NCBI GenBank assembly: GCA_965223545.1
Contig: OZ245006.1
Coordinates: 2,720,001-2,784,000, forward strand
From: Planctomycetota bacterium
GTDB taxonomy: Bacteria; Planctomycetota; UBA1135; UBA2386
DNA: 64,000 nt
Reading direction: 5' to 3'
Part shown: piece after piece, positions 47,604-59,179 of the stretch
How the letters are laid out: each line of letters starts with the position of its first letter
Position numbering within the stretch: the first letter of the stretch is position 1
Program-made: the position numbers and the translations under genes
The notes under the pieces: generated by a model
What the model was told of the DNA's origin: nothing
Seen by the model: only the letters and a program-made list of their open reading frames with translations
Database searches by the model: none

Positions 47604-49478
47604 ATGGGGCCGCTCTGCCACGACACCGACGCCTTCTTGCCGATGTCCCGCGCCGAGATCGAGGCCCGGGGATGGGACGAGGTCGACGTGGTGTTCGTCA
47701 CCGGCGATGCCTACATCGATCATCCCTCGTTCGCGATGGCGATCCTCGGCCGCACCCTGGAAGCCCACGGCTTCCGCGTCGCGATCCTCGCCCAGCCCGA
47801 CTGGCGCAGCGCAGCACCGTGGCGAGAGCTCGGCCGACCGCGGCTCTTCTACGCCGTCAGCGCCGGCAACATGGACTCGATGATCAACCACTACACCGCC
47901 AACAAGAAGCGGCGCAACGAGGACGCCTATTCGCCCGGCGGTGCGATCGGACGACGGCCTGACCGCGCCACCAACGTGTACGCGCAGCGTTGTCGCGAGG
48001 CATTCGCCGGAGTGCCGGTCATCGCCGGCGGCGTCGAGGCGTCACTGCGGCGGATCGCCCACTACGACTATTGGAGCGATGCGGTGCGGCCCAGCGTGCT
48101 GGTCACGGCCAAGCCCGATTTGCTCGGCTTCGGCATGGGCGAGCGCACCATCGTGGCCATCGCCCAACGGCTACAGGCCGGCGCGCCGGTGCAGGACCTG
48201 CGCGACCTGCGCGGGGTCGCCTATCTGCTCGGACGCACGGAGACCGTGCCACAGCACCGCTTCCACCCCGATGGCGATGTGGACGACGTCGAACTGCCCG
48301 CCTTGGAGCGCGTGCGCACCGACCCACGCGCGTTCGCCGAGATGACGGCGAAGCTGCACCACGAGACCAATCCGCTCAACGGCCGCCGCCTACTGCAGCT
48401 GCACGGCGACCGCACCGTGGTGATCAATCCGCCCGATCTACCGCTCACTGAGGCCGAGCTCGACGCCGCCTACGACCTCGCCTACACGCGGCGGCCGCAC
48501 CCTTCCTACCGAGAACGCATTCCCGCGCACACGATGATCGCCGACTCGGTGACCATCATGCGCGGCTGCTTCGGCGGCTGCACCTTCTGCTCGATCACGA
48601 TGCATCAGGGGCGCGCCATCCAGAGCCGCAGCGAGGGGTCCATCCTGCGCGAGCTGCACGGCATGGCGCGCGATCCCGACTTCAAGGGCACGGTCAGCGA
48701 TCTCGGCGGACCGACCGCCAACATGTACCGGATGCGCTGCACGCGGCCCGAGATCGAGCAGCGCTGCCGTCGGCTGTCGTGCGTGCACCCAACCGTGTGC
48801 AAGCTGCTGGACACCAGCCACGAGCCAACCATTCAGCTGATGCGCAAGGCGCGCGCGGTGCCCGGCATCCGGCGCGTGCACATCGCCTCGGGCATCCGCA
48901 TGGATCTCGCGCGGCGCTCCGATGGCTATCTCGACGAGCTGGTCCGCCACCACGTCGGCGGCCACCTCAAGGTCGCTCCCGAGCACGTCAGCGATCGCGT
49001 CCTCGCCAAGATGAAGAAGCCCGCACAGCACACGTTCGAGGAGTTTGCCGACCGGTTCGAAGCGGCGTCGGCGCGTGCCGGCAAGGAGCAGTACTTGGTG
49101 CCGTACTTCATCGCCAGCCACCCCGGCAGCGAAGTCGAGGACATGATCCAGCTGGCGGAGTTCTTGGCCCAACGGGGATACAAGCCACGGCAGGTGCAGG
49201 ACTTCATTCCCGCACCGATGGACATCGCGACCTGCATGTACCACACCGGGCTGGATCCCCTGACCATGCAGCCGGTGTCGACCGCGCGGCGGCTGCGCGA
49301 CCGCCGCGTGCAGCGCGCGCTGATGCAGTTCTTCCGTCCCGAGAACTACTTCGTGGTCAAGCAGGCGCTGCGCGAGGCGGGCCGCACCGACTTGATCGGC
49401 AATGGCCGCCGTTGCCTGATCCCCGCGAATCCGCCGAAGGCGGCGCGCAGCGCGAAGGACCGCGCATCGATGGACTAG
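47604..49478 (+). CDS. ygiQ: YgiQ-family (UPF0313) radical SAM protein
   Basis: [50 protein letters not shown]. Confidence 0.93.
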
Positions 49479-54289: not shown

Positions 54290-55525
54290 TCAGAACTCGG
54301 GCCAGGTGACGACGTTGCTGATCGTCAGCTGGCCGGTGGTGCCGTCGAGGCAGGCACCGGCGAACAGCAGTACGCCTGGCGGGAAGCCCGGCGGCAGCGA
54401 GACGTTGGGGGCGCTGAAGCCGACCTTGCCGCTGCTGGGCACCGGTCCGACCACGAGCGTCAACGTCGCCGGCGCCAGCAGGAAGATCCCGCCCGCGTTG
54501 CCGGGACCCGGCTCACACTGCAGCATCGCCTCGAGGGAGAACGGCTGCCCACGCGGCGGACACCGCGGCAACACCGTCAGCTGGCCCGGCAGTGTGTCGA
54601 CGGTGTCGACGCCGGTGGTCCAGATGCCACCTGGCGGGAACGTGCACGCCGTGGTCGTGGCGAGCGCCTTGGTGACGATGTGCACCTGCTCCGGCACCGC
54701 GGTGTGCGTCGTCGTGAAGAACACGTCGTCGTCAGGGTCGTACTCCAGCGAGTGGTAGAAGTTCCCCGGGGGGCTCGAGCTCGCCGCGGGCCCCGAGGGC
54801 AGGGTGAACAGCCCGACGCCGCCGGTGCCGCCATCGACGGTGAATCCGAGACTCGCCGGGGCTCCCGGGCAGTAGTCGACACCCGACACCGGACCGGTCC
54901 CAGCAGCACCTCTGACGTTGGTCACCAGCACTGGCGGCGCATAGGTGCAGTCGGGACGCACGGCCATGCGGTAGATGTCGCCGTTGTTCTGACCGAAGAA
55001 GATGTTGCCGGTCGGATCGGTGCAGACCGAGGTCACCGGCATCGTCGGGGAACTCGCCGCCCCGACCAGGGTCGCCGCCGCACCCCGCTGTCCACGGGGG
55101 AAACGGTACACTCCACCGTCGCTCGCCACGAGCGGGTCGCCGTTGCGGTCGAAGGCGATGCCGTTGATGGTCGAGCTCGCGGCCATCTGTCCCCAGTTGA
55201 GGGAGACGAGGACGTTGCCGGCACCGTCGATGAGAAGCCGGCTGAGCTGGCCCGCGCTGGCGCGGTGCCCGCCGATCCAAACGTTTTCGTTGACGGGATC
55301 GATCTGCACCGCCTTGACGTCCGGGCTGCCGGTCATCGCGGCGAGGCCGTTGACCACCTGGCAATTGCCACTGACCGGATCGACGATCATCAGACCGTCT
55401 GGCGCGGTCGACGTCGCGCTGGTCAGGTAGAAGGAGGCGACGTGGCGACCGTAGGGGATCTGCGCCGAGAGGGGCGCTGTGGCCATGGCGCTCGCGAGAA
55501 GGAGCGCACAGCGGAGGGTGTACAT
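54290..55525 (-). CDS. Secreted beta-propeller-like protein with C-terminal domain
   Basis: Signal peptide ending PLSA|Q; propeller-like repeats (IAFDRNG, CTDPTG); ends LDGTTGQLTISNVVTW. Confidence 0.75.
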   Translation of the reverse strand: MYTLRCALLLASAMATAPLSAQIPYGRHVASFYLTSATSTAPDGLMIVDPVSGNCQVVNGLAAMTGSPDVKAVQIDPVNENVWIGGHRASAGQLSRLLIDGAGNVLVSLNWGQMAASSTINGIAFDRNGDPLVASDGGVYRFPRGQRGAAATLVGAASSPTMPVTSVCTDPTGNIFFGQNNGDIYRMAVRPDCTYAPPVLVTNVRGAAGTGPVSGVDYCPGAPASLGFTVDGGTGGVGLFTLPSGPAASSSPPGNFYHSLEYDPDDDVFFTTTHTAVPEQVHIVTKALATTTACTFPPGGIWTTGVDTVDTLPGQLTVLPRCPPRGQPFSLEAMLQCEPGPGNAGGIFLLAPATLTLVVGPVPSSGKVGFSAPNVSLPPGFPPGVLLFAGACLDGTTGQLTISNVVTWPEF

Positions 55526-55559
55526 CGCGGTAGGCTACCACGGCTTGGCGCCACTCGGA

Positions 55560-57866
55560 ATGCGTACCGGAACGCCACACCCTACTCTGACGCTCGACCG
55601 CATCCTGCGCGCCGCGGCCCGCATGGCCATCGTCGCGCTGACGCTGGTGCCGATCCTCTGCGGCGGCGAGCTCGGACTGCCGGCCCTGTACTTTCCGGCG
55701 GTGACCGCCAAGCACGTGGGGTGGTTGGCGCTTCTGGCCATGGCATCGGGCTGCTGTCTCGCGCTGACGCGATGGCGGGGCGCGGCACTCGGTTCGCCGC
55801 TGGGATGGCTGGCGGTCGTCGGCGTCGCGCTGGCCGCTGTAGCCGCGGCCCTCGGCGCGGATGCCACGCAGTCGTGGACCGGATCGTTCGAACGCCTCGA
55901 CGGCGTGCTGCTGACCGCGAGCGGCGCCGCGTATTTTCTCGTCGCCCGGGCGGTGATGGACGCGACCTGGTGGCGCCGGTGGCTCTGGGCCTCGGTCGCG
56001 GTTGCCTGCGTGCTCGCCGCAGTCGCACTGCTGCAGAGCGCGCAGGTCCTGCTCGGTGTCGCGCTGCCCGCATGGATCGCCGACCCGTCGGTCCCCCCGC
56101 CAACCGAGGCGCGCTTCTTTCGCGCCACCGGCCGTTTCGGCTCCGGGGTGTTCGCCGCGTCGTACTGGGCCTTGCACTCGGCCATGCTGATGACGGCGGG
56201 CGCCCGACAGACCGGCCGGCGTCGATTGGCGTTGCTCGCGCTGGCGGCGCTGACGGGGGCCGCCGTCCTCGCCAGCCAAACCCGCATCACCGCCGCGGCG
56301 CTGTGCGCAGTCGCCGGCTGGCTCGGCATCCGCACGGCGCGCGCGGGCACGCTCTCGCCGCGCGGGCGCCGCCTGCTGATCGCGACCATGGCGGCCGCGG
56401 CCTTCGCGATCGCGATCCCCCTGGTGGCACTGGCCATCGACCCGGTGCGCTTCGAGCAGTGGCCCGGCCTGAGCCGCGCGGTCTCCGCGATCCACGAGCT
56501 CGGCCGCCGCGGCCTGCTGTTCGGCGTCGCGTTGCAGGGCTTGGCAGACGCGCCGTGGACGGGGGTCGGCCCCGCCAACTTCGAGCTGGTCTGGGACCGG
56601 CACTTCGAGCCGCGCCTGTGGACCACGGCGGAACGGTTCGACCACCCGCACAACGCGGCGCTGGCGTGGGCGGCGGCCGCCGGCTTGCCGGGCTTGGTCT
56701 GGGTCGCGCTGTTCGCGGCGGCGCTCTGGCGCGCAGTACGGCGGCATCCCGATCCGGTCCCCCGCGCCGCGCTGACCGCGGCCTTGCTCGTCTACGCGGC
56801 GCACGCCGCGCTGCAGCCGACCGCCCTCTGGGACCACATCGCGCTGTGGTCGATCGCGGCGTTCGTCGACCGCCGCGGGCGTCCACCCGATCCCGCAGTC
56901 CACGCTTCTCGACCCGCCGCGGGCTCGGCGCGGCTGGCGCTGGCGGTCGCCATCGCCGCCGGGCTCGGCGCGATTCCACTGGCGCTGGCCCGCGACGCGC
57001 AGCGGCTCGGCGCGCTGGCGCAGCTCCGGGCGGCGCCCGCCATCGCGGAGAGCGCGCCCCGGCACGCGGACGCGCATTGGCAGCAAGCGGCGGGGACGCG
57101 CACCGCGCGCGAGGCCTTCCACGAGATCGGCGTGCTGGCGCTGCGCGCGGCGAGCGATCTGGAGATCGCCGACACCACCGCACTGCCGCTGGCACAGCTG
57201 GTCCAGCGCGCCGCCGACGCGCTGCACGCGGAGCGCCCGGCGCGCGTGCACGAGCTACTGCTCGCAGCCAATGTCGCCATCCAAACCGCGGCACGCGTGC
57301 GCCGCGACCGCGAGCGCTCGCAGTCGCACCTCGAGCGCGCCCGCGCTCTGCTGGAGCGTGCTCTCGAACGCTCGCCCCGGCGCGCCTCGCTGCACGAGGC
57401 GATGGCGTTGGTCCACCTCGGCACCCCCGGCGAGCGCAGACAGGCGATGGCGGCGGCGCGCACGGCGCACGAAGTCGCGGCGGGCAACCACCGCAGCGCG
57501 CTGCACGCGATCGCGATCGCGCTCGGGCTGCGGCGGTTCGAGCTCGCGCAGGAGCTCGCCGCGCCGCTGTATCCCGTCGACGGTGCGCTGCACCGGTGGC
57601 CGAGCGACCGCCTGCTGCAGGCGAGCCGCACCGCGGAACGCCCGCTGTTCTGGCTGCCTCGGCTGCGGCCGCGCGTCGACGCGCTGCGCGGCCTGGTCGA
57701 CCGAGGGGCGGTCGCGCCCGAGGAAGCACGACGGCGCGTCGTCGGCATGGCGGAGCTCCTGGTCGCCGGCGGCCGGCGGGAAGACGCGGTGCGCGCCGTC
57801 CGCGCGTTCGTCACCTGGGATCCCGACTTCGCGACCGAGGCCGAGCGCCGCATCGCGACGTGGTGA
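55560..57866 (+). CDS. O-antigen ligase-like (Wzy_C) membrane protein with TPR-like C-terminus
   Basis: Many TMs; SQTR, PWTGVGPANF, FDHPHN..GLPG motifs; helical C-terminal repeats. Confidence 0.8.
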   Translation: MRTGTPHPTLTLDRILRAAARMAIVALTLVPILCGGELGLPALYFPAVTAKHVGWLALLAMASGCCLALTRWRGAALGSPLGWLAVVGVALAAVAAALGADATQSWTGSFERLDGVLLTASGAAYFLVARAVMDATWWRRWLWASVAVACVLAAVALLQSAQVLLGVALPAWIADPSVPPPTEARFFRATGRFGSGVFAASYWALHSAMLMTAGARQTGRRRLALLALAALTGAAVLASQTRITAAALCAVAGWLGIRTARAGTLSPRGRRLLIATMAAAAFAIAIPLVALAIDPVRFEQWPGLSRAVSAIHELGRRGLLFGVALQGLADAPWTGVGPANFELVWDRHFEPRLWTTAERFDHPHNAALAWAAAAGLPGLVWVALFAAALWRAVRRHPDPVPRAALTAALLVYAAHAALQPTALWDHIALWSIAAFVDRRGRPPDPAVHASRPAAGSARLALAVAIAAGLGAIPLALARDAQRLGALAQLRAAPAIAESAPRHADAHWQQAAGTRTAREAFHEIGVLALRAASDLEIADTTALPLAQLVQRAADALHAERPARVHELLLAANVAIQTAARVRRDRERSQSHLERARALLERALERSPRRASLHEAMALVHLGTPGERRQAMAAARTAHEVAAGNHRSALHAIAIALGLRRFELAQELAAPLYPVDGALHRWPSDRLLQASRTAERPLFWLPRLRPRVDALRGLVDRGAVAPEEARRRVVGMAELLVAGGRREDAVRAVRAFVTWDPDFATEAERRIATW

Positions 57867-57990
57867 GTCGCTGCGATGCAGCTGCTCTCACATCGAGACT
57901 GCTCGCCTCTCGGGGCCAGCCGGCGCCGCCTTGGGCCGATGAACGGGATGCCGCGGGTTTCCGCGGGCACGACACAGCGGGGGGAGATCC

Positions 57991-58794
57991 ATGAAGCAAA
58001 CGTCAGTCTTGAGCGTCCTCGTCGCGGGCGCTCTGTCGCTGCCGGGCTACGCGCCGGCGCAGAACACCGCTCGCGGTGTGGTCACCACTGTGTCCAGCGA
58101 TGGATCGGAAGTGGATTTTCGACGGCAAGTGGTGCGCGGCAAGAACACGGTGTTCGAGTTCTACGCCGATTGGTGAGGCGCTTGCCGCACCACGGGGCCT
58201 CAGTTGGAGGCCGCCATCAAACAGTCCGAGGACACCGTCCTGCGTCGCATCAACATCGTGAGCTGGGACAGCCCGGTCGCCAAGCAACACTCGATCCGCT
58301 CGATTCCACACTTCGTGATGTTCGACACTCGCGGCCGCAAGGTTGCCGAGGGAAAGGACGTTCTCAAGCGAGTGCAGCAATCCGCGACCGTGGCTTCATC
58401 GCGTGACGCGCGCACCAAGGGCCGCACTGAACGGGTGAGAAAGCGCGGGGGCAGCTCGGTGCGGACGGTGGTCCGCAACGGCGACCGAATCCGGCTGACG
58501 ACCGTGTTGGCTCGCGGTCAATACACCGTTTTCGAGTTCTATGCCGACTGGTGTCACGCGTGCGAAGAGTTGGCGCCGAAGTTGGAGACGATGGCCAACG
58601 AGACCGACGGCGTCGCACTCCGCCGGATCAACATCAAGGACTGGGAGAGCCCCGTCGCGAAGCAGTACGAGATCAAGTCGCTCCCACACCTGATCATGTT
58701 CGACAAGAAGGGCAAGCAGGTCGCCGAGGGCCGCGATCAAGTCGTGCGGCGGATGGTCGACCTGCAGCGGGCAGCCGCGACCCCGGGTCGCTGA
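57991..58794 (+). CDS. Secreted tandem thioredoxin selenoprotein (Sec at TGA 58174-58176, residue 62)
   Basis: ORFs 57991..58176 and 58204..58794 are in one frame; domain 1 VFEFYADW-TGA-GAC aligns with domain 2 VFEFYADW-C-HAC. Confidence 0.88.
58194..58215 (+). promoter_or_regulatory. Candidate bacterial SECIS element
   Basis: Stem GGCCTC (58196-58201) / GAGGCC (58207-58212), loop AGTTG with G at position 2, loop starting 26 nt after the UGA. Confidence 0.65.
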
Positions 58795-58813
58795 TCGGCT
58801 TGCGCGTTCTCGG

Positions 58814-59179
58814 CTACGACGCTTCCAGGATCTCGATGTCGTAGCCGTCGGGATCGCGCACGAAAACGTAGTTGGAGGCGACCTCGGGCTTGCTGCGCCG
58901 GTACCACCACCCGCGCGCCTCGACGTCCGCGATCACCGGCCCCAGATCGTCGACGTGGAAGGCGAGGTGACCGAACTGCGTGCCGGGCTCGTAGTCGCGC
59001 CCGTCGTGATTGTGGGTCAGCTCCAGGTGGTAGCCCCCGCTCTCGTCGGTGAGGAAGACCAGGGTCGCCTCGTCACCGATGGTCTTGCGGCGCACTTCGC
59101 GGAGCCCCAGGAACCCGGTGTAGAATTCCAGGGCCTTCTGCAGATCCCGGACCCGGATCATGGTGTGAGCCAGTCGCAT
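58814..59179 (-). CDS. gloA: Lactoylglutathione lyase (glyoxalase I) / VOC family
   Basis: HTMIRVRDL, LELTHNH, FGHLAF, FVRDPDGYDIEI. Confidence 0.85.
   Translation of the reverse strand: MRLAHTMIRVRDLQKALEFYTGFLGLREVRRKTIGDEATLVFLTDESGGYHLELTHNHDGRDYEPGTQFGHLAFHVDDLGPVIADVEARGWWYRRSKPEVASNYVFVRDPDGYDIEILEAS

Follow-up and report, generated by a model that had tools for sequence, protein, structure and literature searches.

A tandem thioredoxin gene with an in-frame TGA

The gene described here lies on the plus strand of the window, by which we mean the whole stretch of 64,000 nucleotides of DNA that was analysed, and consists of one frame of 267 codons in which TGA occurs once internally, at codon 62 (Table 1). 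The first-pass annotation had described a signal peptide followed by two homologous thioredoxin domains in this frame, with the TGA exactly on the nucleophilic cysteine of domain 1, and this description holds. Pfam PF00085 matches the protein twice (E 5.7e-28; 97.4 bits against a cut-off of 23.5 bits) and the two domains are identical at 44 of 89 residues in an ungapped comparison (about 49%). The active site of domain 1 reads VFEFYADW-TGA-GAC, that of domain 2 VFEFYADW-C-HAC with TGT (58552-58554) as the codon of its first cysteine, and codon 62 aligns with Cys188 as well as with the U/C column of the homologues. U62, C65 and P106 in domain 1 and C188, C191 and P232 in domain 2 fall into invariant columns, the cis-Pro being assigned by its position in the alignment and not by geometry. 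At 24 of 41 identical residues domain 2 has kept the same codon as domain 1. The N-terminus has, as judged from its sequence only, the features of a likely signal peptide, with Lys2, a hydrophobic stretch at residues 6-16 (mean hydropathy 2.33) and A-P-A followed by Q.

Table 1. Coordinates of the gene, its parts and associated features (window positions unless a genome contig is given)
Feature	Position	Strand	Remarks
Upstream flanking gene, O-antigen-ligase-like membrane protein	55479-57866	+	
Likely ribosome-binding site, purine-rich GGGGGAG	57980..57986	+	4 nt before the ATG; from sequence
Whole gene	57991..58794	+	267 codons with TGA 62 as predicted Sec; ATG at 57991, terminator TGA at 58792-58794
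Likely signal peptide, residues 1-23	57991..58059	+	likely cleavage A-P-A/Q; hydropathy peak 6-16; low model pLDDT
Thioredoxin domain 1, about residues 31-130	58081..58380	+	W-U-G-A-C; Pro106 at cis-Pro position; block pLDDT 94-98
In-frame TGA, predicted Sec62, attacking residue	58174..58176	+	frame and homologue alignment
Cys65, likely resolving cysteine of UxxC	58183..58185	+	invariant in 40/40 rows of alignment A3
SECIS-like hairpin	58196..58212	+	6-bp stem GGCCUC/GAGGCC, loop AGUUG, loop start 25 nt past the UGA
Basic linker	58381..58458	+	8 Arg/Lys against 2 Asp/Glu in residues 131-157; modelled as low-confidence helix
Thioredoxin domain 2, about residues 157-263	58459..58779	+	W-C-H-A-C; profile, alignment, model
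Active site Cys188-His-Ala-Cys191	58552..58563	+	no SECIS-like stem downstream
AGTTG in the register of the domain-1 SECIS loop, no stem	58580..58584	+	possible relic (weak)
Downstream flanking gene, convergent, glyoxalase family	58817-59179	-	
DsbD (L209) of the source genome	G000:C1:4306330-4308483	-	TGA at C1:4306602, UxxC of the C-terminal thioredoxin-like domain

An AlphaFold2 model, computed with Cys at position 62 from an input alignment that covered mainly domain 1, contains two thioredoxin domains with an identical order of elements and block pLDDT values mostly above 90. The N-terminus is modelled with low confidence, the linker has a pLDDT of 58-66, and at a pTM of 0.53 the orientation of the two domains to each other is not fixed. 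At the DNA level, a contig from a second assembly (run X3; 1694 nt, depth 414) spans positions 57700-58853 without a differing letter and thus repeats the TGA at 58174-58176, where a check of the reads had been proposed; X3 is a further sample of one and the same study and is therefore not fully independent. Seven other runs (X5-X11) yielded short pieces only, none of them spanning codon 62. As anticipated in the first-pass annotation, gene callers split the gene: the sole version in the protein collection is P0002, a product of 196 amino acids that begins at TTG 58204.

The surroundings of the gene give no clue to its substrate, as neither flanking gene has a match at 45 homologue loci; the other frames shared across these loci occur between pairs of loci and in one cluster of 18 loci. 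A search for a promoter and a terminator at the gene found no sigma-70-like promoter and no plus-strand terminator. Elsewhere in the window, a large radical-SAM-like open reading frame with a CxxxCxxC motif (47604-49478, plus strand) resembles YgiQ.

The in-frame TGA and its downstream hairpin

The source genome (G000; 8.1 Mb, 91% complete) has the Sec machinery that had been named as a check: selA (E 8e-139), selB (1.5e-94), selD (5.4e-103) and a tRNA-Sec(UCA) (74 bits) were all found above their cut-offs, and selD carries an in-frame TGA of its own. RF2 is present as well, so TGA is a normal stop elsewhere in this genome. A genome-wide reassignment of TGA to Trp or Gly was considered and rejected, since RF2 is present, the sole UCA tRNA among 64 calls is tRNA-Sec, and the gene itself ends in a TGA with no hairpin behind it.

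Strong homologues were found in 12 of 40 related genomes (10 of 24 of the family and 2 of 16 of the order); each is a single-domain protein with a hydrophobic N-terminus, and TGA stands at the same place of UxxC in every one of the 12. A profile built from these homologues matched 28 of 400 genomes in a sample of the phylum at E<=1e-22; the best loci of the 28 comprise 20 TGA forms and 8 Cys forms, second matches in G103 and G130 lying outside this count. Altogether, homologous domains with TGA at the position of the attacking cysteine occur in 32 other genomes from at least 13 families and in metagenome loci, others having Cys there, so that the TGA is not peculiar to this strain. The attacking-residue column of the homologue alignment is invariant as U or C. 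SelA was found in all 20 TGA-form genomes of the phylum sample and SelB in 19, the one genome with no SelB match being G249 (90% complete); seven of the eight Cys-form genomes have SelA too, and the single genome without SelA has a Cys form. Since SelA is common in the phylum (288 of 401 genomes, and all 40 relatives sampled from the order), since related genomes are not independent and since most Cys-form genomes possess it also, this co-occurrence is only modest to moderate evidence for Sec.

The hairpin downstream of the TGA fits the published bacterial SECIS model (PMC13188914, section 5) with its 5-nt loop AGUUG, 6 base pairs, a spacing of 25 nt and a folding energy of -14.5 kcal/mol. A loose form of the published rule is, however, passed by 199 of 600 random TGAs of this 70% GC genome, and by itself the hairpin shows no exceptional stability (z -0.42 over 60 nt and -1.47 over 46 nt), so that its support as a SECIS element comes from conservation. 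In 13 aligned sequences RNAalifold finds this helix only, with 87.9% of cells pairing as against 36-64% in slid-register controls; four of seven pairs have changed on both sides, and none of 500 shuffles reaches this covariation score. The inner four pairs are intact in a fixed register in 25 of 33 TGA forms, among them 15 of the 20 that were left out of the definition of the helix, but in only 1 of 19 Cys forms. Similarly, the loop G is present in 33/33 TGA forms versus 6/19 Cys forms, and a Pro codon is CCT in 27/32 versus 3/14, although CCT makes up just 3.5% of the Pro codons in this genome. A Leu codon is TTG in 26 of 28 TGA forms, TTG accounting for 14% of the genome's Leu codons. A search of genome contigs with patterns that used Cys gave 54 loci, all of them therefore Cys forms; the 9 at >=50 bits served as Cys controls and the other 45 were left out of that count. 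A single copy of the exact family motif is present in the source genome, 21 nt past TGA 62. No such hairpin was found in domain 2 after the Cys codons or at the terminal TGA. Domain 2 has retained the AGTTG pentamer, the sole case among 19 Cys-form domains, which may be a relic of a SECIS loop or may be due to chance.

Taken together, the sequence data make it very likely that TGA 62 is read as Sec. Might the TGA all the same be a true stop or an assembly error, the gene being broken or split and its 3' part persisting as a Cys thioredoxin? The presence of RF2 and the gene's own TGA terminator would agree with this, and read-through is deduced from sequence. Yet coding homology is intact on both sides of the TGA, the X3 contig is identical, and in the 32 other genomes the TGA always stands at the attacking-Cys position and is accompanied by a covarying hairpin. 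By this conservation the explanation appears effectively refuted, its remaining probability being close to nil. It is also very unlikely that an internal start at TTG 58204 or GTG 58459 adds a cytoplasmic Cys-only product under selenium shortage. Gene callers do choose TTG 58204, and a G-run lies 8-12 nt upstream of GTG 58459; TTG 58204, however, falls within the SECIS loop, midway through domain 1, and G-runs are common at 70% GC. The reading of TGA 62 as Sec accords with the proposal of the first-pass annotation that this is an exported oxidoreductase holding a Sec and a Cys version of the same domain, which the Sec machinery, the conserved TGA and the conserved hairpin, on which that annotation is silent, now support. 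Lack of Sec machinery, a cysteine codon in the reads and a TGA confined to this strain had been named as findings that would speak against it; all three were looked for and none was found, and the sequence-level reading is thus supported.

Tandem relatives and the selenoproteins of the source genome

Domain duplication recurs in this subfamily, in which single-domain proteins are nevertheless the rule. Of 40 homologue loci from related genomes 39 are single-domain and one (G104) has two separate Cys genes; absent from all of them, the tandem layout of the present gene is a local variant. Among 62 subfamily-like proteins (>=70 bits) 13 are multi-domain, two of these coming from the present window. 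P0003 and P0004 start just beyond the first active site and have a C-terminal CxxS domain. The first domain of P0096 is of the Ser type and its record ends at EFYADW, whereas in P0005 a CGIC domain follows a truncated start and the record again stops at EFYADW. The ends of these four records would fit Sec codons; like P0002, the records of P0003-P0005 and P0096 start or stop where Sec is expected, and gene callers thus apparently divide members of this subfamily. The seven other multi-domain proteins are made up of repeats that have Cys throughout, belong to a related type and carry an insertion. The combination of a UxxC with an intact CxxC is thus verified at the DNA level only in the present gene, P0005 being a likely second case, and other tandem members often appear to pair Sec with degenerate domains.

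A search of metagenomes for EFYADW-TGA-xx-Cys gave 80 loci (L125-L204) with one tandem among them, L158 (contig Ga0310121_10215234, 330-1160, minus strand). Following a signal-peptide-like start, L158 has the domain order opposite to that of the present gene, the first domain lacking a Cys at the active site, and UPPC together with the conserved hairpin standing in the second. Most of the 80 loci belong to other thioredoxin subfamilies, many with export signals, and include recurring TPR-like fusions as well as fusions of thioredoxin to CcdA/DsbD membrane domains (L146, L163 and L204).

In a tree of 75 rows and 98 columns, obtained by a quick search only, domains 1 and 2 both fall into a basal polytomy outside a clade of 27 members that contains all 12 close-relative homologues. 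The latter are therefore regarded as homologues from the same subfamily, orthology not being established, and neither a sister relation of domains 1 and 2 nor a U-to-C direction is established by this tree. In BLAST comparisons among 207 sequences the best match of domain 2 is domain 1 (110 bits; next 104), and that of domain 1 is P0110 (112 bits), with domain 2 close (110). Domain 2 falls into generic thioredoxin clusters only in the ESM Atlas, and a cluster look-up of 10 homologues returned generic names or none.

A codon-model scan of the source genome for in-frame TGAs gave 169 candidates, and 20 were chosen by eye from the 36 listed (L205-L224). The scan sets a lower bound, since its coding filter missed both SelD and the present gene, two known positives. 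A Pfam match was found for 18 of the 20 further candidates, in 17 of them spanning or adjoining the TGA, and the families represented include TlpA/ResA-like proteins, peroxiredoxin, AhpD-like and deiodinase-like proteins, VPGUxxT, DUF3179, HMA and DsbD; about 16 start with a signal-peptide-like stretch as assessed by eye. Conservation in relatives was checked for one of the 20, DsbD. A further member of the set, L212 (G000:C1:492590-493981, plus strand), encodes an FG-GAP repeat protein in which the TGA immediately precedes a Cys codon and a SECIS-like hairpin is present; FG-GAP is not a redox family, and the protein apparently belongs to none of the listed selenoprotein families. L222 (G000:C1:6151397-6152641, plus strand) and L223 (G000:C1:2579810-2580757, minus strand) are likely exported candidates with a Cys beside the TGA (GCTU and FCU, respectively) and match nothing in Pfam or NCBIfam at the thresholds applied; possibly they represent undescribed selenoprotein families. 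Two in-frame TGA candidates on the minus strand (C1:1761854 and C1:1762082), 228 nt apart and each with a CGUGC-loop hairpin, may belong to one protein with two Sec residues.

DUF1501, a domain typical of Planctomycetota, has 15 matches in the source genome, and the COX1 family has four, some of which may be NO reductases. Planctomycete selenoproteins have been reported in small numbers, with six in one genome (PMC4807772), and aerobic bacteria are stated rarely to retain selenoproteins (PMC13188914). The joint presence of heme-copper oxidase (COX1-family) genes and of 20 further candidate selenoproteins including DsbD bears on this rarity.

The source genome contains one DsbD_TM match, which lies within a full DsbD with N-terminal, membrane and thioredoxin-like domains and an in-frame TGA (Table 1). 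The TGA at the DsbD UxxC recurs in 26 of 33 relatives with a match, a count that was checked at the codon level in 10. Five genomes with a Sec thioredoxin (G007, G016, G023, G028 and G036) have a DsbD domain without TGA, and Sec-DsbD is therefore not an obligatory partner of the Sec thioredoxin. Neither DsbB nor VKOR was found in a search of this assembly, from which they could be missing as it is 91% complete. A peroxiredoxin with a signal-peptide-like N-terminus (L210) is encoded as well. The genome thus combines an export signal on the present protein, as read from its sequence, with a DsbD-type donor.

Proposed function and comparison with known systems

In thioredoxin chemistry the N-terminal active-site residue attacks and the second cysteine resolves, and an exported thioredoxin requires a membrane source or sink of electrons. 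DsbD hands electrons from the cytoplasm to periplasmic oxidoreductases (PMC3322552). Likely export, a sole DsbD match with a predicted Sec site and the failure to find DsbB or VKOR favour a reductive role in the envelope, and we propose that the protein is probably an envelope disulfide reductase that is made by Sec read-through and recharged by DsbD. SelB bound to the AGUUG hairpin would very likely be what inserts Sec62, and the chain would in all probability be exported and cleaved near Ala23. Where Sec insertion fails, translation would stop after residue 61, ahead of both active sites; domain 2 would hence depend on Sec insertion too and, as failure leaves a stub of 61 residues, could not serve as a selenium-free backup unless an internal start were used. 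Sec62 would attack a substrate disulfide or an oxidised thiol and Cys65 would resolve the intermediate to a selenenylsulfide, with Cys188 and Cys191 running the same chemistry as a dithiol. The genome's DsbD would probably supply cytoplasmic electrons, to be spent on targets in the envelope, for instance on mis-oxidised proteins or on the exported peroxiredoxin. The two domains would work mostly in parallel, with the Sec site as the main catalyst and domain 2 as a binding site or a slower second site. Parallel sites are favoured over an obligatory relay because single-domain Sec forms are the norm and partner domains elsewhere are often degenerate; the lack of confident inter-domain packing in the model was counted on the same side.

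But could the same exported selenoprotein use its two catalytic domains to form or shuffle disulfides of secreted proteins, in the manner of protein disulfide isomerase (PDI)? The arrangement, a signal peptide and then two active thioredoxin domains, does resemble the a/a' layout of PDI, the best structural matches are ER oxidoreductases of several domains (ERp72 a0a, 3idv; QSOX1; PDI), and the organism, for which searches gave neither DsbB nor VKOR, may have to form disulfides in some other way. These matches, however, result from adding up both domains (TM-score about 0.3, rmsd 12-16 A), the protein has no separate non-catalytic b-type domain and belongs to a mostly single-domain subfamily, and an oxidase needs an oxidant partner, of which none was found; we thus regard such a role as doubtful. 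Less probable still is a relay in which DsbD would reduce the CxxC of domain 2, which in turn would reduce the selenenylsulfide of domain 1 for Sec to attack the substrate. It would account for the retention of CxxC and the cis-Pro position in domain 2 despite much divergence, the 26-residue flexible linker could permit the necessary contact, and P0005, to judge by where its record ends, likely also joins a CxxC to a Sec domain. Single-domain Sec forms in 32 genomes stand against it, as do the partner domains of L158 and P0096, which lack the active-site Cys, the CxxS domains of P0003 and P0004, and a model that gives no confident domain orientation. The favoured reading thus remains that of an envelope reductase recharged by DsbD with two largely parallel sites. 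Extended to the organism as a whole, it leads to a speculative picture, which we hold to be rather improbable in its entirety: in an O2-respiring, probably planctomycete lineage, envelope reduction might be selenium-based from end to end, with Sec-DsbD, Sec thioredoxins, a Sec peroxiredoxin and about 20 candidate selenoproteins, most of them exported, and the present protein might be an in-chain Sec/Cys hybrid whose domains divide the work following a duplication, one copy having lost Sec and the SECIS stem.

How does this protein compare with known systems? The UxxC thioredoxin is given as an experimentally verified family, one of the 119 prokaryotic selenoprotein families of PMC13188914 (Table 1), a table that names no tandem UxxC plus CxxC thioredoxin, and Trx selenoproteins also appear in earlier surveys (PMC1794560, PMC9312934). 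Our literature search returned no account of the exported subfamily or of a bacterial UxxC plus CxxC tandem thioredoxin; BSepDB sequences and supplements lay outside its scope and may hold single-domain members. Nothing particular to this type of protein came from PMC13326102 or PMC12013277. With the bacterial Sec thioredoxin (PF00085, UxxC) the protein shares the fold, W-U-x-x-C, the cis-Pro position and an in-frame UGA with an adjacent hairpin in the coding region, whereas its likely signal peptide sets it apart, as does its second catalytic domain, which has Cys only. By TIGR01068, the model of the canonical cytoplasmic thioredoxin, domain 1 alone reaches 49.3 against 96.8 bits and each domain stays far below; 100.6 bits are attained only as the sum of two domains, so that neither scores as a single-domain cytoplasmic thioredoxin. 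The use of Sec for the attacking Cys is common to other Trx-fold families (Prx-like/TlpA UGC, the PF13098 thiol:disulfide interchange family, VPGUxxT, SaoT, HUIPC, TsoA-Y and GOS_C), several of which occur elsewhere in the source genome. Neither the full protein nor any of 40 subfamily domains passes the cut-off of an NCBIfam selenoprotein model, the sole match being to TsoB with 38 of 805 bits.

Like members of the PDI family (ERp72, PDI, TXNDC5) this is a likely secretory-pathway protein with repeated catalytic thioredoxin domains, and the algal PDI-like selenoproteins (PDI_a-e, PMC7539508), members of which can carry Sec, are its nearest analogue. Different from these, it is bacterial, has two catalytic domains only and a bacterial-type SECIS in the coding region, and is 11-25% identical to its structure matches; the PDI profiles remain below their cut-offs (TIGR01126 65 of 107.2 bits, TIGR01130 51.4 of 344 bits) and the model contains no b domain. 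With the envelope reductases fed by DsbD/ScsB (DsbC, DsbG, CcmG/TlpA; described in PMC3322552) it has in common that it is a likely exported Trx-fold acceptor from a DsbD-type donor, whereas it uses, by prediction, Sec, has a DsbD partnership that is predicted, and scores far below the cut-offs of the TlpA, ResA and DsbE models. By its sequence, then, the protein belongs to the Trx-fold UxxC class and is neither a canonical cytoplasmic thioredoxin nor, by profile, a PDI. What appears to be new is an exported, mostly single-domain subfamily that no NCBIfam selenoprotein model represents, together with its rare tandem variant of a Sec and a Cys domain. With a Sec and a Cys site on one scaffold, in one chain and in one compartment, this variant offers a natural control for the question of selenium versus sulfur.
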